Sequence record: PZ534515.1
Origin: a phage
DNA: 64,000 bases
Strand: one strand, 5' to 3'
Of this stretch, positions 38,212 to 56,862 are shown piece after piece (within the stretch, counting starts at the first letter, position 1; the number at the start of each line of letters is the position of its first letter). Below the pieces are notes generated by a model. The model was given only the letters and a program-made list of their open reading frames with translations. It ran no database searches and was not told where the DNA came from. The translations under genes and the position numbers were made by a program.

Positions 38212-38497
38212 CGTTAAACTCTCTGACGAAGAAATAGTTGACTTTATTGTTACCTACCATAAGGTCAAAGCAGGTGTTCTCAAAAGGTTTGTTGTAGGCA
38301 TCATATGAAGTGTACGTATCAGCTACTTGTTTAGTATTGAGCTTTTTACTTGATGGGTTTAAGAGGCCACCATACAGTTTCTTGATAGCCTCTTCTACAA
38401 CAGACCAGATAATTTCGTCAGTAATTTCTTCGTACAGGTCAAGTTCACGCTCTAGTGAGAAGTCACAAATAGGGAAAATAACCTGTACTTTACTCAT
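38204..38497 (-). CDS. hypothetical protein
   Basis: Start overlaps the upstream stop. Confidence 0.45.
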   Translation of the reverse strand: MSKVQVIFPICDFSLERELDLYEEITDEIIWSVVEEAIKKLYGGLLNPSSKKLNTKQVADTYTSYDAYNKPFENTCFDLMVGNNKVNYFFVREFNDE

Positions 38498-38916
38498 TAA
38501 CGAATAACCTGTGTGACTTGAATTGCTTCAGTTACTGATAAGTCCCCAACAGTCTCTTCTTTGATGAAGGTGAAGGTTAGCTCAATAGGTTCTTGCTCTT
38601 CTTCTTCTTCTTCTTCTTCTTCTTGCTCAACTGGAACACCGTTAAGCTCATCAAAGATTGATTGAGTCGTCCAGTCTTCACCACCATCTGGGTAGTGGAT
38701 TGCGTAAAGAGGGAACTCCCTGTCAAACCAACCAAATACAGGGCAGCCATCTTCATCATCTCGCACTCGATGAAGGGTGCTTCCAGACCCTGTAAAACAA
38801 AGGAATAAATCTCCGTTGCACTTGAATATTACTGCGTCGGCAAAACCAATGTCCTCTCGACCATCATGGCCAAACGTGTCCACCTTTACTTGAATACTTC
38901 TAACATCTTTATTCAT
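38497..38916 (-). CDS. hypothetical protein with poly-Glu tract
   Basis: Contains EQEEEEEEEEEQE encoded by a CTT/GAA trinucleotide run. Confidence 0.45.
   Translation of the reverse strand: MNKDVRSIQVKVDTFGHDGREDIGFADAVIFKCNGDLFLCFTGSGSTLHRVRDDEDGCPVFGWFDREFPLYAIHYPDGGEDWTTQSIFDELNGVPVEQEEEEEEEEEQEPIELTFTFIKEETVGDLSVTEAIQVTQVIR
38598..38624 (-). repeat. (CTT)9 trinucleotide repeat (GAA on the coding strand) encoding poly-Glu
   Basis: cttcttcttcttcttcttcttcttctt read directly. Confidence 0.8.
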
Positions 38917-39307: not shown

Positions 39308-39357
39308 AGTTTTCTCCTTAGAAAATAAAAAGGCTCCCGAAGGAGCCTATGAAGATA

Positions 39358-39822
39358 TTACTTTGGATATACACTGTCAAGGTAAATGTCAGCTTCCATT
39401 CTACGTCTGTTTTTCAGACCGTTTGAAGTGACCTTCTGACCTTTGACTGTAACCTTGTTCCACCACTGCATAGCTTCTGCACAACCTACCTTGTTACCAG
39501 CATTGTGGCGCTTGATAAATGTAGAATCCTGCATAGCTGTGATACCGATGTTGTATGTTTCACTTACAAGTGCATCGAACTCATTCTGAGAAGTTGGAAC
39601 CTTGATAGCTTTATTCACTGCTGCAACAAACTTCTCAACATCCGCGAGAAGATACTGTTCAGCTTGTTCAGCAGTGATTTTCATACCCATCTTAACAGGT
39701 TTTCCGTCAATACGGATTGTACCATACCCAATTGTTGGGATTCCGGCAGAGTCTTCGTAAGCCTCTAACTTCAGACCTTCAAAGAACTTAATGGCTTCTA
39801 AACCTTTTCTTGAGAGTTGCAT
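39358..39822 (-). CDS. GH24 lysozyme (T4-lysozyme / lambda R type), likely endolysin
   Basis: LEAIKFFEGLKLEAYEDSAGIPTIGYGT matches the catalytic E ... D ... T(I)GYG signature of phage GH24 lysozymes. 154 aa. Confidence 0.8.
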   Translation of the reverse strand: MQLSRKGLEAIKFFEGLKLEAYEDSAGIPTIGYGTIRIDGKPVKMGMKITAEQAEQYLLADVEKFVAAVNKAIKVPTSQNEFDALVSETYNIGITAMQDSTFIKRHNAGNKVGCAEAMQWWNKVTVKGQKVTSNGLKNRRRMEADIYLDSVYPK

Positions 39823-40955
39823 TATGCCTCCCCTGCTGGGTTAACTGTAACTGTTGCCGCATTAGACGTTACAGAGCCACCTGCACCAGTAACTACACAG
39901 GTGTAGCTTCCTGCATCAGCAGTGGTTGCACCTTCTTTGGTGTAAGTTGCAGCAGTTGCGTCTAGGATGTTTTCCTCACCCTTCTTCCACTGATAACCTG
40001 TTGCACCTGTTGCCACAACATTCAGTGTTAAGGTCTCACCTTCAGTGATTTCTTGATTGGCTGGCTGTTGAGTGATAACTGGCAAAGCATTTACCGTGAT
40101 TGTTGCAGGACTAGAAGTAACGGAACCACCAGCACCTGTCACAACGCAAGTATATGAACCTGCATCTGCTGGAAGTGCACCAGATTTGCTATAGGTAGCA
40201 TTTGTAGCTGAAGGGATGTCAGAGCCATCTTTCTTCCACTGATAACCTGTTGCACCTGTTGCAGTAACTGATAAGTTGATGTTTCCACCTTCATTAATGG
40301 TCTGGCTAGAAGGTTGCTGAGTAATCACTGGCAAGGCGTTCACAGTTACTGTTGCTGCATCTGAGGTGACACTTGTCCCACCCTCTCCAGATACAACACA
40401 AGTGTATGAACCAGCGTCAGCAGGTACTACAGATTGTTTTGTATAAGTTGCAGAAGTGGCACTAGAGATATTCTCACCATCCTTCTTCCATTGATAACCA
40501 GTGGCATTAGTTGCAAGAATACTTAGGTTAAGTGTGCCACCCTCATTAACTGTTTGGTTTGTCGGTTGCTGAGTAATTACTGGTGGCTTAATAGCATCCT
40601 TCAGCTTAGCATTCAGCATTGAGAACGGCTTAACTCTTGCCAACCATTCACAATACACTGTGTCAACATCTTTACCATTGATGATTGCATACTGTAAATC
40701 CATGAAGAAATCAGCAGTTCTCATCTGTGCACCAACACTGTAAAGAAGTTCATCACTAAAAGGAACTTTGTAGTCTGGTTTGTAGTCAAACTTCTCAACC
40801 TCTGCAATATCAGCTTCAGGCCAATATGAGCTATAGGTGAGTGGTAAAATAGCTTCTTGATATGTTCTAAAATCATATCTCTTACCAGCCTTTACATTTG
40901 CAACGAAACCTTTTACAAATTCTTTGAAGTCTGGGTAAGTCTTTGCTTTAATCAT
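39822..40955 (-). CDS. protein with N-terminal domain plus three tandem Ig-like repeats
   Basis: Three repeats of about 85 aa (PVITQQP.NQ..NEGG.NLS..AT.ATGYQWKKDG ... ADAGSYTCVV.G.GGSVTS..AT.TVNA). The N-terminal 125 aa are paralogous to the adjacent 123-aa ORF. Confidence 0.55.
   Translation of the reverse strand: MIKAKTYPDFKEFVKGFVANVKAGKRYDFRTYQEAILPLTYSSYWPEADIAEVEKFDYKPDYKVPFSDELLYSVGAQMRTADFFMDLQYAIINGKDVDTVYCEWLARVKPFSMLNAKLKDAIKPPVITQQPTNQTVNEGGTLNLSILATNATGYQWKKDGENISSATSATYTKQSVVPADAGSYTCVVSGEGGTSVTSDAATVTVNALPVITQQPSSQTINEGGNINLSVTATGATGYQWKKDGSDIPSATNATYSKSGALPADAGSYTCVVTGAGGSVTSSPATITVNALPVITQQPANQEITEGETLTLNVVATGATGYQWKKGEENILDATAATYTKEGATTADAGSYTCVVTGAGGSVTSNAATVTVNPAGEA
39850..40610 (-). 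repeat. three tandem repeats of about 255 bp (encode the Ig-like repeats)
   Basis: Near-identical stretches such as ttcttccactgataacctgttgcacctgttgc recur three times at about 255 bp spacing. Confidence 0.6.
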
Positions 40956-41323
40956 TTCTTTTTAGCCTCTAAACGTGCGTTTAATCTAAAATAGCCTTTA
41001 TGTTGTGGAGATACATCACCAACAACAATACCTTCAACCTTATAACCCTTACCAATTACATACTGGATATCCATAAGAAATGTACCAAGCCCAACAATGT
41101 GGAACATTGGGTACAATAACTTATCTGAATCTGGGAGATTAATATCTGGGATGTAGGTAGGTTGTTTACTAGTGGGTGTGATATCTTCTTCAGGCCATTT
41201 GCTAAGTCTCCATGTTAAAGGTGATGCAATAACATCTTTAAGATTATATCTATCACCTTTCTCCACGGAATTGATATAGGATTGTAGGAAGCAATAAAAG
41301 TCTTTTGCACTCTTAGCCTTCAT
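40952..41323 (-). CDS. hypothetical protein, paralog of the N-terminal domain of the Ig-repeat protein
   Basis: Alignment by eye with 39822-40955: shared DF..F, RY, WPE.DI, Y.PD, SD.LLY, F.MD.QY.I, LNA.L. Confidence 0.5.
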   Translation of the reverse strand: MKAKSAKDFYCFLQSYINSVEKGDRYNLKDVIASPLTWRLSKWPEEDITPTSKQPTYIPDINLPDSDKLLYPMFHIVGLGTFLMDIQYVIGKGYKVEGIVVGDVSPQHKGYFRLNARLEAKKK

Positions 41324-41370
41324 TAAATATCCTTATAAATAGATAAAGGGGCATTAGCCCCTGTTTATAC

Positions 41371-41961
41371 TTAAGCTTTGGTCTTAAGTAGGTTCTTAAG
41401 TTTTTTGAGATTCATGTTCTCGTCAAACTTAAAACCAAATCCATTGACATAATCAATGAACTCGGATTTCTTACTAAGTGATAGCGCGTAACTCATATCA
41501 AAGTTATTACTTGTTTCTGCGTCTGGACTAGAGTTCACATCAAATGAGATTTCTGTAGGCTCCTGCTTACTACTTCTCATATTATCAATCAATAGGCATG
41601 TATAGTTTGCCGGATAGAAGTTTGCACTACCGTCAACATACCCGTACTTATTATTGTGAATAAGGTTGGAAAATACCTTAAGAAATGTTTCTGAGTCGTG
41701 GCATACAAGTTTAAATTGACTGCACTCTCCAAGAGCCACTAAAGAATAAGGGCTTTCACTATCAATGTCGTAGTTTGGATTTGATGTTGTAACCGTCACA
41801 CGCATCAAGTTATTAGCAATAGTCTTCTGCTTGAAAGAATTTGGGACATAGTGAAGACCTCTATCACACTGATTAACTAGCTCTTTCAATAGGTCATTTG
41901 CATACGGTGAATTAATTGATACAGAGCCATCACTATTGTAATTAAAACTTACTGTTAACAT
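41371..41961 (-). CDS. hypothetical protein
   Basis: ATG start. Confidence 0.45.
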   Translation of the reverse strand: MLTVSFNYNSDGSVSINSPYANDLLKELVNQCDRGLHYVPNSFKQKTIANNLMRVTVTTSNPNYDIDSESPYSLVALGECSQFKLVCHDSETFLKVFSNLIHNNKYGYVDGSANFYPANYTCLLIDNMRSSKQEPTEISFDVNSSPDAETSNNFDMSYALSLSKKSEFIDYVNGFGFKFDENMNLKKLKNLLKTKA

Positions 41962-43033: not shown

Positions 43034-44449
43034 ATGAGCGAGTTATTTAAACATGCGCACCTTCATGCAGGTCGAACTGAAAATGGTGCTGTAAACCATA
43101 CTTCATCAATGTCTGCTCTGGTAGACTTCTACAAAGCCGCTGGCTCAAGCCGTAGCAATGTAGAAATCTTACCAGACCTGTTCTACAAAGCTTTGCGTGA
43201 GGATGTTGATGTTGCAGTTCGTATTTTACTGCATATGCGAGATGTGCGAGAAGGTATGGGTGAGCGTAAAGCTTTCCGAACTGTTTTACTTCAAGCAATT
43301 GAAGATAAAGTTTTAGAACCTACACAGGTTCTCCGCATTATGGATAAGATTGCAGAACTTGGTCGTTTTGATGACTTCAAAATCTTTGTAGGTACTCGTT
43401 TTGAGACAGACGCCTTCAAACATTTAGAAGCAGCATTACTAGACCCTGCAACAGCAGGTTTAGCAGCTAAGTGGTTACCACGAGTAAAACCACGCCACAA
43501 ACAGTTTGTAAAACGTTTCTGTAAGTTTGCAAACTTAAGCGAGAAAGAGTACCGCACACTGTTATCTGCACTGTCTGATACGGTTGAGCAAAAAATCTCT
43601 GCTAATGAGTTTGGTAAGATTGACTACAGCAAGATTCCTTCACTCGCTGCTGCACGTTACCAAAAGCTCTTTAACCGTAAAGATGGGGAACGTTACAAAG
43701 CTTACATCGAGTCACTATCAAAGGGTGAGGCTAAGATTAACGCTGGTGCTGTTTACCCATATGATGTGATTAAATCTATCAAGCATGGTAATGCAGATGT
43801 TGCTAATGAGCAGTGGAAAGCACTACCAAACTGGATGGCAGAAGGTGAGAACATCTTGTGTATGACTGATGTTTCAAGCTCAATGTCTTGGGTGAATCTT
43901 GGTTCAATCACTGCCCTTGATATTGGTGTATCACTTGCCTTGTATGTAGCAGAACGCAATACAGGCTGCTTTAAGAATGAGTTAATGGTTTATTCAACAA
44001 ACCCTCACTTCATTGAACTGAGTGGCGATTTACAAAACCGTCATCGTCAGGTGATGCGTCATGTTGAATATGGTTCAACTAACTTACAAGCAGCTTTTGA
44101 CCGTATTCTTGAAATAGGTAAGAGAAACAACTTGACTCAGAAAGATATGCCAAGTAAGCTTATCATCTTCTCCGATATGGAGTTCAATCAGGTTGATGGA
44201 GCTAACGGTCGTACAAACTTTGAAGCAATTCAGAGTAAGTGCAAAAAAGCTGGATACGAAATGCCACAACTGGTATTCTGGTACTTAGCAAACCGTAATG
44301 GTACTTGCGAAGTATCTGTTAAGGATAATGGTGTAGCAATGGTATCAGGGTTCTCTCCAGCCACTTTAAAAGCTCTGCTTGGTGGTGAGAAGTTTGACCC
44401 AATCAGCGTAATGCTCAAAGCAGTAATGATTGACCGTTACATCTGGTAA
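43034..44449 (+). CDS. vWA-domain protein (MIDAS motif), possibly TROVE/Ro60-like
   Basis: ILCMTDVSSSMS fits the vWA MIDAS D-x-S-x-S motif. Alpha-helical N-terminal half. Located immediately upstream of the tRNA bank. Confidence 0.45.
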   Translation: MSELFKHAHLHAGRTENGAVNHTSSMSALVDFYKAAGSSRSNVEILPDLFYKALREDVDVAVRILLHMRDVREGMGERKAFRTVLLQAIEDKVLEPTQVLRIMDKIAELGRFDDFKIFVGTRFETDAFKHLEAALLDPATAGLAAKWLPRVKPRHKQFVKRFCKFANLSEKEYRTLLSALSDTVEQKISANEFGKIDYSKIPSLAAARYQKLFNRKDGERYKAYIESLSKGEAKINAGAVYPYDVIKSIKHGNADVANEQWKALPNWMAEGENILCMTDVSSSMSWVNLGSITALDIGVSLALYVAERNTGCFKNELMVYSTNPHFIELSGDLQNRHRQVMRHVEYGSTNLQAAFDRILEIGKRNNLTQKDMPSKLIIFSDMEFNQVDGANGRTNFEAIQSKCKKAGYEMPQLVFWYLANRNGTCEVSVKDNGVAMVSGFSPATLKALLGGEKFDPISVMLKAVMIDRYIW

Positions 44450-44615: not shown

Positions 44616-44692
44616 CTCTGTTTAGCTCAGCTTGGTAGAGCGTTCCGTTTGGGGCGGTAAGGCCGGAGGTTCAAGTCCTCCAACAGAGACCA
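44616..44692 (+). tRNA. tRNA-Pro (anticodon TGG), CCA encoded
   Basis: Hand-folded: acceptor ctctgtt/aacagag, D-arm gctcagcttggtagagc, anticodon loop ttTGGgg, T-arm ggagg-ttcaagt-cctcc. Confidence 0.7.
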
Positions 44693-44699
44693 AATTAAT

Positions 44700-44777
44700 G
44701 TTCCAGTAGACAAAATGGTAAAGTCACCACTCTTTCAAAGTGGATATTTGAGGGTTCAAATCCCTTCTGGAACGCCA
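44700..44777 (+). tRNA. tRNA-Glu (anticodon TTC), CCA encoded
   Basis: Acceptor gttccag/ctggaac, anticodon stem ccact/agtgg with loop ctTTCaa, T-loop ttcaaat. Confidence 0.7.
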
Positions 44778-44868
44778 GTTTTGACAGAAGACCAATTACA
44801 GCAAACTTAATCTTATTCATCTGAAGATAAATCGGACAAAGAAGAGATTTGGTCTGGTCATTAAGAAT

Positions 44869-44945
44869 TGCGGGTATAGAGAAAGGGCGTCTCACATGTC
44901 TCATTAGCATGGTATCGGCAGGTTCGACTCCTGCACCCGCCTCCA
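44869..44945 (+). tRNA. tRNA with anticodon CAT (Met/fMet or Ile-lysidine); 1:72 position unpaired
   Basis: T-arm gcagg-ttcgact-cctgc; acceptor tgcgggt/acccgcc with first-pair mismatch; anticodon loop ctCATta. Atypical features, so lower confidence. Confidence 0.45.
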
Positions 44946-45022
44946 ATTTTGCAGAAGACCGTATTCAGCAACAAACTACTTTTTGCGGATAAAAGAAAAA
45001 ACACGGTCTGGCAATGTATTAA

Positions 45023-45099
45023 GGTTAGGAAGCACATAAGGTATGTGCGGTCGCCTGTTAAGCGAATGGCACAGGGTTCGAATCCCTGACTAACCGCCA
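45023..45099 (+). tRNA. tRNA-Asn (anticodon GTT), CCA encoded
   Basis: D-arm gcac-ataaggtat-gtgc, anticodon loop ctGTTaa, T-arm caggg-ttcgaat-ccctg. Confidence 0.65.
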
Positions 45100-45170
45100 A
45101 ATTTAGGGGAGAAGCGATTGCTCACCGATTTGTAAGGTGCAAGTCCTTAGCCTGAATAGAATAATAAAAT

Positions 45171-45258
45171 GTGTCGTTATCCCGTAGATGGTAGCGGTGG
45201 GGACTGTAAATCCCTTGTCATTGAGACTCGGTAGGTTCGACTCCTACACGGCACACCA
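45171..45258 (+). tRNA. tRNA-Tyr (anticodon GTA), long variable arm, CCA encoded
   Basis: About 85 nt. Acceptor gtgtcgt/acggcac (one GU), anticodon loop ctGTAaa, T-arm gtagg-ttcgact-cctac. Confidence 0.65.
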
Positions 45259-45264
45259 AATAAA

Positions 45265-45342
45265 GGTTATGTAGTTTAATCTGGTTAAAATACTCCCCTG
45301 TCACGGGAGATGATGAGGGTTCAAATCCCTTCGTAACCGCCA
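45265..45342 (+). tRNA. tRNA-Asp (anticodon GTC), CCA encoded
   Basis: Acceptor ggttatg/cgtaacc, anticodon stem ctccc/gggag with loop ctGTCac, T-loop ttcaaat. Confidence 0.7.
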
Positions 45343-45799
45343 AATTATAATAAGTATTTCAAGATGATGTTTTGAGAGGGCTATTTATCCCCTCCCTTAA
45401 AGAGTTCTTACGAGTATTCTTTAAAGGAGCAGAAGACCAAATACAGCAAGTTACTTAAAATTTCAAGCCAATTTAATTTTGAAAAATTTAAAACTTGGTC
45501 TGGCTCAACAAATTTACAGAAGACCGTTTACAGCAAAACTTAAACAATCTATTTCTCCGGTAAAGAAAAGGCGAAGGTTCGATTCCTTCACTCGGCAGAT
45601 GTCGAGTTGGTGTAATGGTAGCACTTAAGATGATAAACAACGGTCTGGTAATTATCTTTGCAGTAGCTTATGTGGCTAATTATGTCGTCCCATGAGTGCC
45701 GATGAATTTCCTTAGCATGATTCTAGATTAGCTTAATAGGAAATGACTCTACAGACCCTTTAGCAAGGTCTGCGTAGGTTACTGCAAAGGTAATTTAAT

Positions 45800-45875
45800 G
45801 GAAGTGTAGCAGAATGGTGATGCGGCAGACTTTTAATCTGACAGGCGATGGGTTCGAATCCCTCCACTTCTACCA
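45800..45875 (+). tRNA. tRNA-Lys (anticodon TTT), CCA encoded
   Basis: Acceptor ggaagtg/cacttct, D-arm gca-gaatggtga-tgc, anticodon loop ctTTTaa. Weak T-stem (ggg/ccc) shared with the paralogous tRNA-Lys(CTT). Confidence 0.6.
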
Positions 45876-45879
45876 ATAT

Positions 45880-45956
45880 GGTTCAGTCGCAGATAAGGTA
45901 ATGCAGGGGTCTCATAAGCCCTATGAATGTGGGTTCGATTCCCATCTGAACCTCCA
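45880..45956 (+). tRNA. tRNA with anticodon CAT (Met-type), CCA encoded
   Basis: Acceptor ggttcag/ctgaacc, anticodon stem ggggt/gccct with loop ctCATaa, T-arm gtggg-ttcgatt-cccat. Confidence 0.65.
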
Positions 45957-45957
45957 A

Positions 45958-46033
45958 GCTGGTATAGTTAAGAAGGTTATAACACTCCCCTGATAAGGGA
46001 ATATCGGTGGTTCGATTCCACCTACCAGTACCA
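45958..46033 (+). tRNA. tRNA-Ile (anticodon GAT), CCA encoded
   Basis: D-arm gtta-agaaggtta-taac, anticodon loop ctGATaa, T-arm ggtgg-ttcgatt-ccacc. Confidence 0.65.
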
Positions 46034-46048
46034 ATTTCAATAAAGTTG

Positions 46049-46077
46049 TTGACATTAACATGTGACCACTTTATAGT
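46049..46077 (+). promoter_or_regulatory. internal sigma70-like promoter in the tRNA bank (TTGACA-17 bp-TATAGT)
   Basis: Hexamers and spacing read directly. Confidence 0.5.
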
Positions 46078-46278
46078 AACCTTAGTTTTCGTTGCGTAGC
46101 GTCTATTTTGCAAATTTAAAATAAATGCAAACGACAATGTTTTTCTGGCAGTAGCTTGATAGGCTAAACACCAGTGAGGTCTTCCAATCCCTCATCAAAG
46201 AATTTGGCGTACTCGCCCACGGTATGATTAATAAGGTGGGCATCTTTAAGGGCTTTCTAAGAGAGTCTTTAAAGATTA

Positions 46279-46355
46279 ATGCACCCTTAGTTCAATTGGA
46301 TAGAGCAACGGTCTTCTAAATCGTTAGTTACAGGTTCGAATCCTGTAGGGTGTGC
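46279..46355 (+). tRNA. tRNA-Arg (anticodon TCT), CCA encoded
   Basis: D-arm gttc-aattggata-gagc, anticodon stem acggt/atcgt with loop ctTCTaa, T-arm acagg-ttcgaat-cctgt. Confidence 0.7.
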
Positions 46356-46499
46356 CAAATAGTTAGCAGATTGCTTAGACGACCTTATCGGGTCTCCGTG
46401 TAAGGAGGTGGTCTGTATCTCATGTTTTCCAGAACATGTAAATAATCTGAGAAGGGGCTTTACAGTGTTGCGAAAATACGGTAAGCTTCGAATTATAGT

Positions 46500-46582
46500 G
46501 TGGGACGATGTTAAGACTCTAAGGCATGAGCAACGGCCTCCAAAACCGTTTCAAAGGGGTTCAACTCCTCCGTCCCATGCCA
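46500..46582 (+). tRNA. tRNA-like gene, probable tRNA-Trp (anticodon CCA) with an enlarged D region
   Basis: Acceptor gtgggac/gtcccat, anticodon arm aacgg(c)-ctCCAaa-(a)ccgtt, T-loop ttcaact. About 7 extra nt between acceptor and anticodon arm; needs a tRNA scanner. Confidence 0.4.
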
Positions 46583-46595
46583 AAGTCTTATTAGG

Positions 46596-46683
46596 GGTAG
46601 GTAGCGGCTAATGGCAGCCAAACAGTCTTGAAAACTGTTGCCACTGTAGAGATACGGTGAGGGTTCGACTCCTTTACTTACCG
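46596..46683 (+). tRNA. tRNA-Ser (anticodon TGA), long variable arm, CCA not encoded
   Basis: 88 nt. Acceptor ggtaggt/acttacc, anticodon loop ctTGAaa, T-arm gaggg-ttcgact-ccttt. Confidence 0.6.
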
Positions 46684-46837
46684 CCTAATAAGATTTAAAG
46701 CCAAGCTTCATTCGGATGTTGCTTTGGTATCCCTCGTGTATTGTCGTACACACTGATAAAGCACCTAGTAGGTGTCACGGAGAAGAGATAATATCAAGCT
46801 CTCCAAAGGTTCTAGTCACCGGATTAAACAAGACTAT

Positions 46838-46862
46838 GCAAAGACCAATTTAGGTCTTTTTA
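46838..46862 (+). terminator. rho-independent terminator inside the tRNA bank
   Basis: aagacc-aattt-aggtctt hairpin followed by TTTT. Confidence 0.5.
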
Positions 46863-46940
46863 GAGGGCTTCTAAGGTTATTACAGCTTGTTGTGGAACCT
46901 TGTTGCTTAGGTTCTTAGAAGTTCTCTAAAAAGATTTAAT

Positions 46941-47017
46941 GCACCTATAGCCCAACTGGTAGAGGCAGCAGACTTAGAATCTGCTCAGTGTGAGTTCGAA
47001 TCTCTCTAGGTGTACCA
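46941..47017 (+). tRNA. tRNA with anticodon TAG (Leu), short variable arm, CCA encoded
   Basis: Acceptor gcaccta/taggtgt, anticodon stem gcaga/tctgc with loop ctTAGaa, T-loop ttcgaat. Variable loop is only about 5 nt. Confidence 0.55.
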
Positions 47018-47024
47018 AATTAAT

Positions 47025-47100
47025 GCAGGTGTAGCAAAATGGTTATGCGGCTGACTCTTAATCAGTAAGACGATGGGTTCAATTCCCTCCACCTGTACCA
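47025..47100 (+). tRNA. tRNA-Lys (anticodon CTT), CCA encoded
   Basis: Close paralog of tRNA-Lys(TTT): acceptor gcaggtg/cacctgt, anticodon loop ctCTTaa. Confidence 0.6.
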
Positions 47101-47106
47101 AACATT

Positions 47107-47182
47107 GGGGTCATAGTTTATATGGTTAAAATTCGAGTTTTGCAAACTTGGGAACTGAGTTCAATTCTCAGTGACTCCACCA
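47107..47182 (+). tRNA. tRNA-Ala (anticodon TGC), CCA encoded
   Basis: Acceptor ggggtca/tgactcc, anticodon loop ttTGCaa, T-arm ctgag-ttcaatt-ctcag. Confidence 0.65.
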
Positions 47183-47188
47183 ATTAGT

Positions 47189-47263
47189 GCATCCATAGTT
47201 TAAACGGGAAAATTACAGTCTTCCAAACTGAGGTTGAGGGTTCGATTCCCTCTGGATGCTCCA
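47189..47263 (+). tRNA. tRNA-Gly (anticodon TCC), CCA encoded
   Basis: Perfect acceptor gcatcca/tggatgc, anticodon loop ctTCCaa, T-arm gaggg-ttcgatt-ccctc. Confidence 0.7.
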
Positions 47264-47269
47264 AACAAT

Positions 47270-47346
47270 GCTGCTTTCGTATAATTGGCTATTACACATC
47301 CCTTGTAAGGATGGAGATGCGGGTTCAAGTCCTGTGAGCAGCACCA
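47270..47346 (+). tRNA. tRNA-Thr (anticodon TGT), CCA encoded
   Basis: Acceptor gctgctt/gagcagc, anticodon stem catcc/ggatg with loop ctTGTaa, T-loop ttcaagt. Confidence 0.7.
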
Positions 47347-47441
47347 ATTCAGAGGTCAAGTGAAAGACCGCTGGTGTCAACTGAAGACCGTAACAAATTC
47401 CACGGAGTTGAGTTAGCGGCACAACTTCAGACCTCTTTCAT

Positions 47442-47516
47442 ACTCGCTTAGTTTATATGGTAAAACATCACCCTTACAAGATGAAGAAAAAGGTTCAAGT
47501 CCTTTAGTGAGTACCA
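47442..47516 (+). tRNA. tRNA-Val (anticodon TAC), CCA encoded
   Basis: Acceptor actcgct/agtgagt, anticodon loop ctTACaa, T-arm aaagg-ttcaagt-ccttt. Confidence 0.6.
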
Positions 47517-47517
47517 T

Positions 47518-47595
47518 GTTCCAGTATCCCAATTGGCAGAGGATGCAAGCTCAAACCTTGTACTAGTGACGGTTCGAATCCGTCTTGGAACACCA
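47518..47595 (+). tRNA. tRNA with anticodon CAA (Leu), short variable arm, CCA encoded
   Basis: Acceptor gttccag/ttggaac, anticodon stem gcaag/cttgt with loop ctCAAac, T-arm gacgg-ttcgaat-ccgtc. Confidence 0.55.
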
Positions 47596-47600
47596 ATTTT

Positions 47601-47676
47601 GCAGGATTAGTTCAAATGGATAGAGCAACAGTCTACGAAGCTGTTAATAGGGGTTCGAATCCCTTATCCTGCACCA
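47601..47676 (+). tRNA. tRNA-Arg (anticodon ACG), CCA encoded
   Basis: Perfect acceptor gcaggat/atcctgc, D-arm gttc-aaatggata-gagc, anticodon loop ctACGaa. Confidence 0.7.
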
Positions 47677-47695
47677 ATTTAAAGAGGCTATTTAG

Positions 47696-48253
47696 ATGAG
47701 ATATTTGAAGTATGCTTCATGGATTTTCCTAGCTTTGTTAGACCCATTGGCAGCAACCTTAGCAGTTATCTTAGCACCTTTTGTAGTTCCATTCTATAGT
47801 GAGAAGAAAGGACATCTACCTTTTGGATTCAGATGGATGGAGACATATGACAACCCCATTGATGGTGATGAAGGTCACATTAAACGATGGGCTAAGATTA
47901 GAAAGATTGGTAAGCTTGGTGTCTATTTGCAGAGAGTTGGATGGCTCTGGAGAAACAAAGCTTATAACTTCTCTTACCATGTGTTAGGAAGAGATATAAA
48001 AGATGTTACTAAGTGGAAAGGTAATATCAACGTAAGCTCTGACCCTGAAGATAATCAGACAGGTTATCTCCTAATGTGGAACAGTAATGCTTGGGGATTA
48101 TTCGCTTTTATCCCATCAATTAAAGTCTTTGGTAAACAATTCTACTGGAGAATTTATGTTGGGTGGAAACTAAAAAGTGTTGTCCCAGAAGAAAGAGCAT
48201 TCTCAAGGGAAAGAGTTATGTTGGCATTCTTTATTCATCCACTGAGAAAGTAA
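47696..48253 (+). CDS. hypothetical membrane protein embedded in the tRNA bank
   Basis: ATG with AAGAGG 8 nt upstream. N-terminal TM helix (WIFLALLDPLAATLAVILAPFVV), Trp-rich. Flanked by tRNAs on both sides. Confidence 0.5.
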   Translation: MRYLKYASWIFLALLDPLAATLAVILAPFVVPFYSEKKGHLPFGFRWMETYDNPIDGDEGHIKRWAKIRKIGKLGVYLQRVGWLWRNKAYNFSYHVLGRDIKDVTKWKGNINVSSDPEDNQTGYLLMWNSNAWGLFAFIPSIKVFGKQFYWRIYVGWKLKSVVPEERAFSRERVMLAFFIHPLRK

Positions 48254-48261
48254 AGATTTAA

Positions 48262-48337
48262 AGGGGATTAGTTTACAAGGTTAAAACCTCGGTCTTTGAA
48301 ATCGAAGAAGTTGGTTCAATTCCAACATCCCCCGCCA
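48262..48337 (+). tRNA. tRNA-Gln (anticodon TTG), CCA encoded
   Basis: Anticodon stem tcggt/atcga with loop ctTTGaa, T-arm gttgg-ttcaatt-ccaac. Confidence 0.6.
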
Positions 48338-48339
48338 AT

Positions 48340-48418
48340 GCTCCATTACTCCAATTGGCAGAGAGGCCAGACTTAAAATCTGTGTTATGTATCGGTTCGA
48401 ATCCGATATGGAGTACCA
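48340..48418 (+). tRNA. tRNA with anticodon TAA (Leu), variable region about 8 nt, CCA encoded
   Basis: Acceptor gctccat/atggagt, anticodon loop ctTAAaa, perfect T-arm atcgg-ttcgaat-ccgat. Confidence 0.55.
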
Positions 48419-48423
48419 AATTT

Positions 48424-48499
48424 AGCGGTATAGCATAACTGTCAATGCAGCAGTCTCTGAAGCTGTCCTATTAAGGTTCAAATCCTTATGCCGCTGCCA
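48424..48499 (+). tRNA. tRNA-Gln (anticodon CTG), CCA encoded
   Basis: Acceptor agcggta/tgccgct, anticodon loop ctCTGaa, T-arm taagg-ttcaaat-cctta. Confidence 0.65.
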
Positions 48500-48522
48500 C
48501 TTCTAAGGATTCTTACGAGAGT

Positions 48523-48598
48523 CTTTAAATGTGGCCTTATCATAAATGGTAATGACCCATGCTGTGAACATGGTCTATACGGGTTCAAATCCCGTAGG
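48523..48598 (+). tRNA. tRNA-His (anticodon GTG), CCA encoded
   Basis: Anticodon stem ccatg/catgg with loop ctGTGaa, T-arm acggg-ttcaaat-cccgt. Confidence 0.65.
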
Positions 48599-48603
48599 TC
48601 ACC

Positions 48604-48679
48604 CCAATTTATAGTCCAAGTAGCTTATATGGTTAAAGCGCGTGTCTGAAAAACATGAGAAGAGGGTTCAAATCCCACT
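48604..48679 (+). tRNA. tRNA-Phe (anticodon GAA), CCA encoded
   Basis: Acceptor agtccaa/ctggact, anticodon loop ctGAAaa, T-loop ttcaaat. Confidence 0.6.
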
Positions 48680-48695
48680 GGACTACCAATTTCAA

Positions 48696-55755: not shown

Positions 55756-56862
55756 ATGTTGACTAATTCTGAAAAAAGCAGATTTTTCCTTGCTGACCTG
55801 ACTGGTGAAGTCCAGTCTATCCCAAACACTTATGGGTATATTTCCAACTTAGGTCTGTTCCGTTCAGCACCAATCACCCAAACTACTTTCCTTATGGACT
55901 TGACTGATTGGGATGTTAGCTTGCTTGATGCGGTAGACCGTGATAGCCGCAAAGCAGAGACTAGCGCACCTGAGCGTGTTCGTCAAATCAGCTTCCCAAT
56001 GATGTACTTCAAAGAAGTTGAAAGCATCACTCCTGATGAAATTCAGGGTGTACGTCAGCCAGGCACTGCAAACGAACTGACCACTGAAGCTGTAGTACGT
56101 GCTAAGAAGCTGATGAAGATTCGTACCAAGTTCGATATTACTCGTGAGTTCCTGTTTATGCAAGCTCTGAAGGGTAAAGTTGTTGATGCTCGTGGTACTC
56201 TGTACGCTGACCTGTACAAGCAGTTCGATGTTGAGAAGAAGACTATTTACTTCGACCTTGACAACCCTAATGCTGATATCGACGCTTCTATTGAAGAACT
56301 GCGTATGCACATGGAAGACGAAGCTAAGACTGGCACTGTAATCAACGGTGAAGAAATTCACGTAGTTGTTGACCGTGTATTCTTCAGCAAGCTGGTTAAG
56401 CATCCTAAGATTCGTGACGCTTATCTTGCACAGCAGACTCCGCTGGCTTGGCAACAGATTACTGGTTCTCTGAGAACTGGTGGTACTGACGGCGTTCAGG
56501 CTCACATGAACACTTTCTACTACGGTGGTGTTAAGTTTGTCCAGTACAACGGTAAGTTCAAAGACAAGCGTGGTAAGGTTCACACTCTGGTGAGCATTGA
56601 TAGTGTAGCAGACACTGTTGGTGTTGGTCATGCTTTCCCTAACGTTTCTATGCTGGGTGAAGCAAACAACATCTTCGAAGTTGCATACGGTCCATGTCCT
56701 AAGATGGGTTATGCAAATACACTTGGTCAGGAACTGTACGTATTCGAATACGAAAAAGACCGTGACGAAGGTATTGACTTCGAAGCTCACTCTTACATGC
56801 TGCCATACTGTACTCGTCCTCAGTTGCTGGTAGATGTTCGCGCTGACGCTCAAGGTGGCTGA
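55756..56862 (+). CDS. major capsid protein
   Basis: 368 aa downstream of protease/scaffold. Strong highly-expressed-gene codon bias (CTG, CGT, GGT, GTT). Position and size. Confidence 0.55.
   Translation: MLTNSEKSRFFLADLTGEVQSIPNTYGYISNLGLFRSAPITQTTFLMDLTDWDVSLLDAVDRDSRKAETSAPERVRQISFPMMYFKEVESITPDEIQGVRQPGTANELTTEAVVRAKKLMKIRTKFDITREFLFMQALKGKVVDARGTLYADLYKQFDVEKKTIYFDLDNPNADIDASIEELRMHMEDEAKTGTVINGEEIHVVVDRVFFSKLVKHPKIRDAYLAQQTPLAWQQITGSLRTGGTDGVQAHMNTFYYGGVKFVQYNGKFKDKRGKVHTLVSIDSVADTVGVGHAFPNVSMLGEANNIFEVAYGPCPKMGYANTLGQELYVFEYEKDRDEGIDFEAHSYMLPYCTRPQLLVDVRADAQGG

Follow-up and report, generated by a model that had tools for sequence, protein, structure and literature searches.

We analysed a 64,000-nucleotide stretch of phage DNA (record PZ534515.1), hereafter the window, and describe two adjacent genes on its minus strand that precede the endolysin gene. 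The products of both genes begin with the same type of domain, which in the longer protein is followed by three immunoglobulin (Ig)-like units. The long gene almost certainly encodes a Hoc-like hexamer decoration protein, equivalent to Hex-Dec of Bas63, gp20 of Sf14, and gp36 of Felix O1, as judged from its sequence. For the locus as a whole, the very probable explanation is that the long gene specifies this decoration protein while the short gene is a separate duplicate of its capsid-binding domain (CapBD). The open reading frames (ORFs) and domains concerned, together with the predicted binding partner, are as follows.

40952–41323, minus strand: short paralog, 123 residues, without Ig domains, a predicted stand-alone copy of the Hex-Dec capsid-binding domain
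39822–40955, minus strand: long paralog, 377 residues, predicted Hex-Dec/gp20-type Hoc-like hexamer decoration protein
40590–40955, minus strand: CapBD of the long ORF, residues 1–122, including Arg79 and Arg107
40332–40583, minus strand: Ig-like unit 1, residues 125–208 of the long ORF
40083–40331, minus strand: Ig-like unit 2, residues 209–291 of the long ORF, the middle unit
39825–40082, minus strand: Ig-like unit 3, residues 292–377 of the long ORF, the terminal unit
39358–39822, minus strand: GH24 endolysin, 154 residues, phage lysozyme PF00959 (Pfam, E value 9e-41), third gene of the cassette
55756–56862, plus strand: major capsid protein, the predicted binding partner of the CapBD, with Asp221; 14.8 kb from the decoration gene

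An earlier note, made from the sequence alone, had described the two genes as a paralogous pair that lies beside the endolysin and outside the structural genes. The neighbouring gene is indeed a GH24 lysozyme (PF00959), and the paralogy is borne out. In BLASTP, the short and long proteins share 43 identities in 121 positions (36%) over residues 1–119 of each, with an E value of 2e-17; the N-terminal similarity, on which the note had staked its claim, hence holds under proper alignment. A multiple alignment across the short and long families contains 31 invariant columns.

The source phage is a Felix O1-like myophage (Felixounavirus), judging from its database matches. A 2.7-kb region matches 250 phage records with a best identity of 96.9%, and nearly all of these are Felixounavirus phages, which infect Escherichia, Salmonella, Shigella, or Citrobacter. 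The gene order is that of Felix O1 (ORF35 lysin, ORF36 'tail protein', ORF37 hypothetical protein), and also matches that of Sf14 (gp19, gp20, gp21) and vB_EcoM_ASO1B. The counterparts of the short ORF are Felix O1 ORF37, Sf14 gp21, Bas63 g125, and VpaE1 ORF40c. Two of the records retrieved deserve a comment. The 147-kb GU169904.1, named 'Staphylococcus phage SA1', includes this cassette of Felix O1 type, 85% identical at the protein level, a sign that the assembly may be chimeric or contaminated. PV390658.1, the Felix O1-like vB_EcoM_P54, bears a Tequatrovirus taxonomy line that looks wrong.

The long gene and its Ig array

In a PDB sequence search, the long ORF matched chain S of 9NCF, the 'Immunoglobulin-like domain protein' of the Bas63 capsid, with an E value of 5.5e-270, and chain S of 9C2D and 9C3A, the 'putative tail protein' of the Sf14 capsid, with an E value of 1.7e-173. 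Its residues 1–122 align without gaps to both 9NCF_S and 9C2D_S, differ from Bas63 at 4 of 122 positions, and retain both Arg79 and Arg107. The capsid protein of the window is ca. 99% identical to 9NCF_A (E value 9e-248) and keeps Asp221 within the motif KIRDAY. We assign the long ORF to the Hex-Dec family because of this near-identical CapBD, the two retained arginines, and the ca. 99% identical capsid protein with its Asp221. The CapBD has an isoelectric point (pI) of 5.5. The three C-terminal tandem Ig domains are within the family's range of one to four.

The orthologs have been studied on the particle. In Bas63, the protein was named Hex-Dec and forms an ordered monomer at the centre of facet-edge hexamers only, on a T=9 capsid (PMC12609058). 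Sf14 gp20 was found in virions by mass spectrometry (MS); its CapBD comprises the first 118 residues, and Arg79 and Arg107 form salt bridges with Asp221 of three capsid-protein subunits (PMC11821841). The selectivity of gp20 for pentamer-proximal hexamers was put down to the geometry of Asp221, which is shifted in true three-fold hexamers (PMC11821841). Felix O1 gp36 (31.6 kDa) was identified in CsCl-purified virions with 44% coverage (PMC3185647). As the sequences are nearly identical, the mechanism derived from cryo-electron microscopy (cryo-EM) and virion MS of the orthologs can be transferred to the window. In each of the 60 pentamer-proximal hexamers of a T=9 capsid, a single copy of the N-terminal 120-residue CapBD would plug the acidic centre, held by salt bridges that Arg79 and Arg107 form with Asp221 in the major capsid protein, and the three flexible Ig-like domains would project outward from the capsid. 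We infer from the near-identity of both partners that the protein is present on the virion at the pentamer-proximal hexamer centres. By analogy with what has been proposed for T4 Hoc, the Ig domains may serve adhesion to host or environmental surfaces.

The earlier note had remarked on Ig domains being encoded in a non-structural block. The published answer is that they belong to a capsid decoration protein of the virion, and that its gene is located outside the structural module, at a distance of more than 10 kb (PMC12609058, PMC11821841, PMC3185647). The database label of the long ORF, 'tail protein' (phrog_3995), is nominally at odds with the assignment, but not in substance. The label arises from the similarity of Ig domains to major tail proteins: the PHROG 'major tail protein' matches lie in the Ig region, as do the 'Hoc-like' matches, which cover only residues 121–370. 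Hex-Dec is mis-annotated as 'tail protein' in most genomes according to the Bas63 paper (PMC12609058). The genome paper of Felix O1 had already remarked that this 'tail protein' gene is far from the other morphogenesis genes (PMC3185647). Following the two 2025 cryo-EM studies, the label should read capsid decoration protein. The long protein, its genomic location, its mis-annotation, and its one to four Ig copies are thus already published, and most of the apparent novelty of the locus is gone since the long copy has been solved by cryo-EM.

We then compared the long ORF with known systems. Hex-Dec of Bas63 (Escherichia phage JohannRWettstein; 9NCF_S; Sci Adv 2025, PMC12609058) is an ortholog whose CapBD is ca. 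97% identical. Its Ig units 1, 2, and last match those of the window, and its neighbours are the same, with the endolysin g123, the Ig protein g124, and the short paralog g125 in a row. It differs in having four Ig units instead of three. Shigella phage Sf14 gp20 (9C2D/9C3A chain S; Commun Biol 2025, PMC11821841) is the ortholog from Mooglevirus. It has three Ig units, the anchors between Arg79/Arg107 and Asp221, and a short paralog, Sf14_gp21, directly upstream, whereas its CapBD is ca. 89% identical and its Ig units are only 60–69% identical to those of the window. T4 Hoc is also a non-essential monomer at hexamer centres, in which a small capsid-binding domain is joined to a string of Ig-like domains, and an adhesion or environmental-sensing role has been proposed for it. 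However, the capsid-binding domain is C-terminal in Hoc and N-terminal in the long ORF, and the topology of the CapBD differs (PMC12609058). Neither by sequence nor by fold did the CapBD match any PDB chain besides 9NCF and 9C2D, and Hoc was not matched. Hoc is not known to have an Ig-less paralog. T5 pb10 resembles the long ORF in its Ig domain, with the Ig units matching 5LXK (E value 5e-12) and 8ZVI (E value 2e-11). Outside the Ig domain, of which pb10 has just one, there is no similarity: the CapBD is unrelated. The T5 capsid is T=13.

Pfam recognises three Ig domains in the long protein (Ig_3/Ig_2/I-set, E values 1e-32 to 1e-24), in agreement with the three repeats described by the earlier note. 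The note had also traced them to three DNA repeats of ca. 255 bp. The units comprise 83–86 residues and 249–258 bp, and share 69–74% of amino acids and 65–67% of nucleotides in a protein-guided alignment. They therefore stand as diverged repeats at the protein level, but not as repeats for DNA repeat finders: Tandem Repeats Finder and a seed-based repeat finder reported nothing at a period of ca. 250 bp, as the DNA identity is only ca. 66%.

A copy-number comparison, which the note had called for, covered 29 loci. Ig repeats are present in all relatives, with long proteins of 210, 294, 377, or 461 residues corresponding to one, two, three, or four Ig units. Unit 1 is recognisable in 27 of 28 related loci; one variant has a single Ig unit, which is nearer to unit 3 of the window. 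The forms with two Ig units have those matching units 1 and 3 of the window and miss the middle unit 2, an assignment that is clear in Felixounavirus loci and weaker in the divergent loci of the Mooglevirus group. In the forms with four, the additional unit is located between units 2 and 3. Copy number varies even among very close relatives, as in one locus (L003) whose short paralog is identical to that of the window and whose CapBD is 99% identical, but which has two Ig units, not three. As the two-unit forms retain units 1 and 3 and the four-unit forms insert between 2 and 3, the array evidently changes its length as internal units are gained or lost in register. The copy-number variation agrees with both cryo-EM papers and is in principle nothing new.

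The short paralog: homology, selection, and expression

The Ig-less paralog is the only uncharacterised part of the locus, and no description of it was found in the papers searched. It is a small new variant, in which the anchor of a decoration protein is kept as a separate gene. In the PDB sequence search, the short ORF matched the CapBD of 9NCF_S and 9C2D_S with an E value of 1e-11. The earlier note had advised predicting the structure of the shared domain. The AlphaFold2 (AF2) model of the short copy, which is of low confidence, matched only 9NCF_S and 9C2D_S in the PDB with Foldseek (probability 1.0, template modelling score 0.63), and the next match had an E value of 0.47. Pfam found no domain in the short ORF, which ends at residue 123. 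Automated annotation sometimes labels the short paralog 'tail protein' by similarity.

The family was found by tblastn in 253 phage records, ca. 235 of which carry both copies and 16–20 the long copy only. The frame of the short ORF is intact, with 122–124 residues, in ca. 235 genomes. Aside from Felixounavirus, the cassette of short gene, long gene, and lysozyme gene occurs in Mooglevirus, SUSP1-like phages, and L032, a divergent metagenomic phage of 87 kb. For L032, the identity is 46% for short with short and 57% for long with long, while short and long proteins share 31–35%. The presence of the pair in all these lineages indicates that the duplication is older than they are, and hence that the pair predates the split of the genera. 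The CapBD family is tiny, comprising 13 clusters among 1.84 billion representatives in a profile search, in which its other members have the CapBD fused to Big_2 or Ig domains. Being so small, the family yielded no functionally annotated distant relative in this search. A distant Ounavirinae-like metagenomic phage (L037, 5001–5462; L038, 952–1413) has a single CapBD-family gene at the equivalent position beside its lysozyme gene. Its product, of 153 residues, is without Ig domain and has a Lys/Ser-rich, probably disordered tail. This single gene may represent the pre-duplication state or a different kind of display module.

The ratio of nonsynonymous to synonymous substitution rates (dN/dS) was estimated pairwise by the Nei-Gojobori method for 28 sequences. 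It is 0.12–0.13 for the short gene, based on 366 pairwise comparisons with dS up to ca. 1.3, and 0.04 for the CapBD. By region, the values for the short gene are as follows.

Residues 1–16: dN/dS 0.04
Residues 17–65: dN/dS 0.19
Residues 66–120, the C-terminal lobe: dN/dS 0.08, the most constrained long stretch

A dN/dS of 0.12 implies that the short gene is functional and under purifying selection, although it evolves ca. three times faster than its CapBD sister.

Its expression has been followed in Felix O1. By reverse transcription polymerase chain reaction, ORF36 and ORF37 belong to the late class and are maximal at 60 min, together with the morphogenesis genes, while the lysin gene ORF35 and ORF38 peak at 25 min (PMC3185647).

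Organisation of the cassette and its surroundings

The short paralog, the long paralog, and the endolysin gene form a compact minus-strand cassette bounded by two terminator-like hairpins. The sites at its ends and junctions are as follows.

41347–41362, minus strand: terminator-like hairpin AGGGGCTAATGCCCCT followed by a T-rich tail, with a 6-bp stem containing 5 GC pairs, between the ORF of 196 residues and the short paralog
40966–40969, minus strand: GAGG Shine-Dalgarno sequence of the long ORF, in the last codons (Leu-Glu-Ala) of the short ORF, 10 nt 5' of the ATG
40956–40975, minus strand: junction GCT AAA AAG AAA TGA, resembling a -1 slippery site
39331–39348, minus strand: terminator-like hairpin AGGCTCCTTCGGGAGCCT followed by TTTTATTTT, directly 3' of the endolysin gene

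The upstream hairpin AGGGGCTAATGCCCCT is listed as a rho-independent terminator in the genome paper of Felix O1 (PMC3185647), and is kept in mio, fBSPA4, and P54. Within the cassette, the TGA of the short ORF overlaps the ATG of the long ORF as ATGA, and the stop codon of the long ORF overlaps the start of the endolysin gene as TAATG. The segment TTAGAGGCT with the GAGG of the long ORF is conserved at all loci compared, even where the short gene is a pseudogene. The GAGG embedded in the short ORF and the ATGA overlap suggest that the translation of the two genes is coupled. A candidate late-promoter motif downstream of the upstream terminator, TATTTATAAG, is not enriched, with 5 matches in the window and 9 expected, and a scan of the cassette for sigma-70-like promoters gave fewer matches than shuffled sequence.

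Neither the neighbouring ORF of 196 residues nor that of 132 residues contains a Pfam domain. The former (41371–41961, minus strand; phrog_4034) lies just upstream of the pair. For its distant homolog in L037, a precomputed match to PF26097 (Phage_Inh_N) is rated 'faint'. As the inh gene of T4 adjoins hoc, a head-related role of this ORF is conceivable. Further upstream, a DUF2828/vWFA-type protein of 471 residues (43034–44449, plus strand; phrog_850 'RNA-binding protein', E value 4e-182) is encoded divergently from the decoration cassette, and an array of 24 tRNA genes (44616–48688, plus strand) lies directly 3' of its gene. On the other side of the cassette, an ORF of 139 residues (38497–38916, minus strand; phrog_4348) encodes an unbroken run of ca. 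11 glutamates (EQEEEEEEEEEEEQE).

Possible functions of the short paralog

We tentatively favour a reading in which the short protein still recognises the hexamer centres of the capsid protein, with altered specificity or affinity, though we hold it with less than even confidence. It would act transiently in head assembly or at low occupancy, and not as a permanent decoration. Three observations argue for this. The linkage of the short gene to Hex-Dec is older than the divergence of the genera; its long stretch under the strongest constraint is the counterpart of the lobe with which Hex-Dec contacts the capsid; and the short protein is basic (pI 9.1) while the pore is acidic, the hexamer centre being described as Asp-lined (PMC11821841).

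Several lines of evidence weigh against a capsid role. First, the anchors are changed. In the short family, an invariant Gly takes the place of Arg79, and Gln or His that of Arg107 in Felix O1-like phages; at the latter position, only the divergent P0097 has Arg. As the two arginines are not conserved across the wider CapBD family either, their loss is suggestive but not decisive. The AF2 model of the short ORF is of low confidence as well, with a predicted local distance difference test score (pLDDT) of 64 and a predicted template modelling score (pTM) of 0.66. Second, the particle data are negative. ORF37 is missing from the virion MS list of Felix O1, which does include 12-copy proteins such as the putative portal (PMC3185647), and the short ORF of the window is predicted to yield six good tryptic peptides, including DFYCFLQSYINSVEK and VEGIVVGDVSPQHK. 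VpaE1 has 22 virion proteins, and since only gp54, gp58, and gp68 of these are not common to Felix O1, its ORF40c was probably not detected either. The wV8 proteome paper covers the tail fibre only. In both cryo-EM papers, the other 20 hexamers are reported to be free of density, and no description of the short paralog was found there (PMC12609058, PMC11821841). The word 'paralog' is absent from both papers, and the supplement of the Sf14 paper is without Sf14 gp21, 'gp21' there being that of SPP1.

Third, the gene can be lost. The PhageMaP knock-out screen of Bas63 includes the endolysin g123, the Ig-like domain protein g124, and the 'tail protein*' g125, the last of which is the short paralog by synteny. 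The g125 knock-outs are viable, with scores of +0.16, +0.52, and +0.26 on S17-1; on MG1655, the scores are -1.34, +1.08, and -0.75 with high variance, compared with -2 to -4 for essential Bas63 genes on this host. The g125 signal, whose variance reaches 1.3, is too noisy to be decisive. The decoration gene g124 is dispensable as well, though the PhageMaP authors call it more important on S17-1. In nature, the short gene is a shared pseudogene in the clade of mio, fBSPA4, and P54, in which the start codon is destroyed and ca. 225 bp are deleted internally, while the last ca. 90 bp survive, and with them the GAGG ribosome-binding site used by the decoration gene. The pseudogene loci are L029 3330–3500 (mio) and 700–900 of L039 and L040, and REP6 and REP11 probably fall in the same clade. 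The short protein is hence non-essential and probably not a stable stoichiometric component of the virion.

A role away from the capsid is the next candidate, and we regard it as unlikely, though to be taken seriously. Here the short paralog would have been neofunctionalised, keeping the small alpha/beta fold while acting in the infected cell on a non-capsid target, for example a host or phage protein. The loss of the Arg79 anchor, the ca. threefold faster evolution than the CapBD, the absence from virion data, and a noisy fitness effect that may depend on the host all point this way, and a capsid-independent function fits the Arg79 loss and the negative virion data equally well. It accounts less readily for the tight linkage and suggested translational coupling to Hex-Dec since before the genera diverged, or for late transcription with the morphogenesis genes in Felix O1, and no alternative domain or motif was detected in the short protein.

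A permanent capsid role is improbable by comparison. The short paralog would then be a second hexamer decoration that caps the 20 three-fold-axis hexamers to which Hex-Dec cannot bind, overlooked owing to its small size, the lack of a protruding Ig fibre, and smearing by three-fold averaging. The short protein is modelled in the same fold family as the CapBD, has residues that differ, yet are strongly conserved, in the lobe bearing the Hex-Dec capsid contacts, suits the acidic pore as a basic protein, and is co-expressed late with Hex-Dec. Moreover, the Asp221 geometry described for true three-fold hexamers leaves an unfilled site (PMC11821841). Yet the Bas63 paper states that there is no density on the other hexamers (PMC12609058), the protein is missing from the Felix O1 virion proteome despite its six good tryptic peptides and the detection of 12-copy proteins, and the gene is lost in one natural clade and dispensable in Bas63. 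In a related scenario, the short protein would plug procapsids transiently, with Hex-Dec later taking its place on 60 sites.

It is very improbable that the short ORF is a decaying duplicate devoid of function. Dispensability in the laboratory and pseudogene status in ca. 16–20 of 253 genomes would fit decay, but a dN/dS of 0.12 over the 366 comparisons and a frame intact both in ca. 235 genomes and in a phage whose identity is only 46% do not. The selection analysis contradicts pseudogene status for the short ORF of the window, which we reject.

Least credible of all is a fusion of the short and long ORFs by programmed -1 frameshifting at their A-rich junction, GCT AAA AAG AAA TGA, a mechanism known from some phage structural proteins that carry Ig domains. 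Relative to the short ORF, the long ORF of the window does lie in the -1 frame, and an AAAAAG run stands just before the stop codon, the -1 frame being free of stop codons in between. However, the run is replaced by GCTGAAAAG in one relative (L014) and by GCTAAGAAA or GCTAATAAA in Mooglevirus, and the frame relation is +1 in two others (L024 and L025). The long ORF also has its own conserved GAGG and ATG, the 9NCF chain starts at Met1 of the long ORF, and Felix O1 gp36 was identified at its own predicted 31.6 kDa with no fusion product listed (PMC3185647). With neither the motif nor the frame relation conserved among relatives, we reject the fusion, and the slippery-like run is most likely a by-product of the Lys-rich tail of the short protein.

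The locus shows a decoration protein whose capsid-binding module also exists as a gene of its own, selected, co-expressed, and older than the divergence of the genera, with a product never yet seen on particles. The role of the short gene could account for decoration being limited to 60 of the 80 hexamers, and could reveal an assembly-time step in capsid decoration. If the short protein did cap the three-fold hexamers, two paralogous proteins would between them plug every one of the 80 hexamers in the T=9 capsid of Felix O1-type phages. In therapeutic and diagnostic phages of the Felix O1 type, the 120-residue module may also be usable as a minimal anchor for capsid display.

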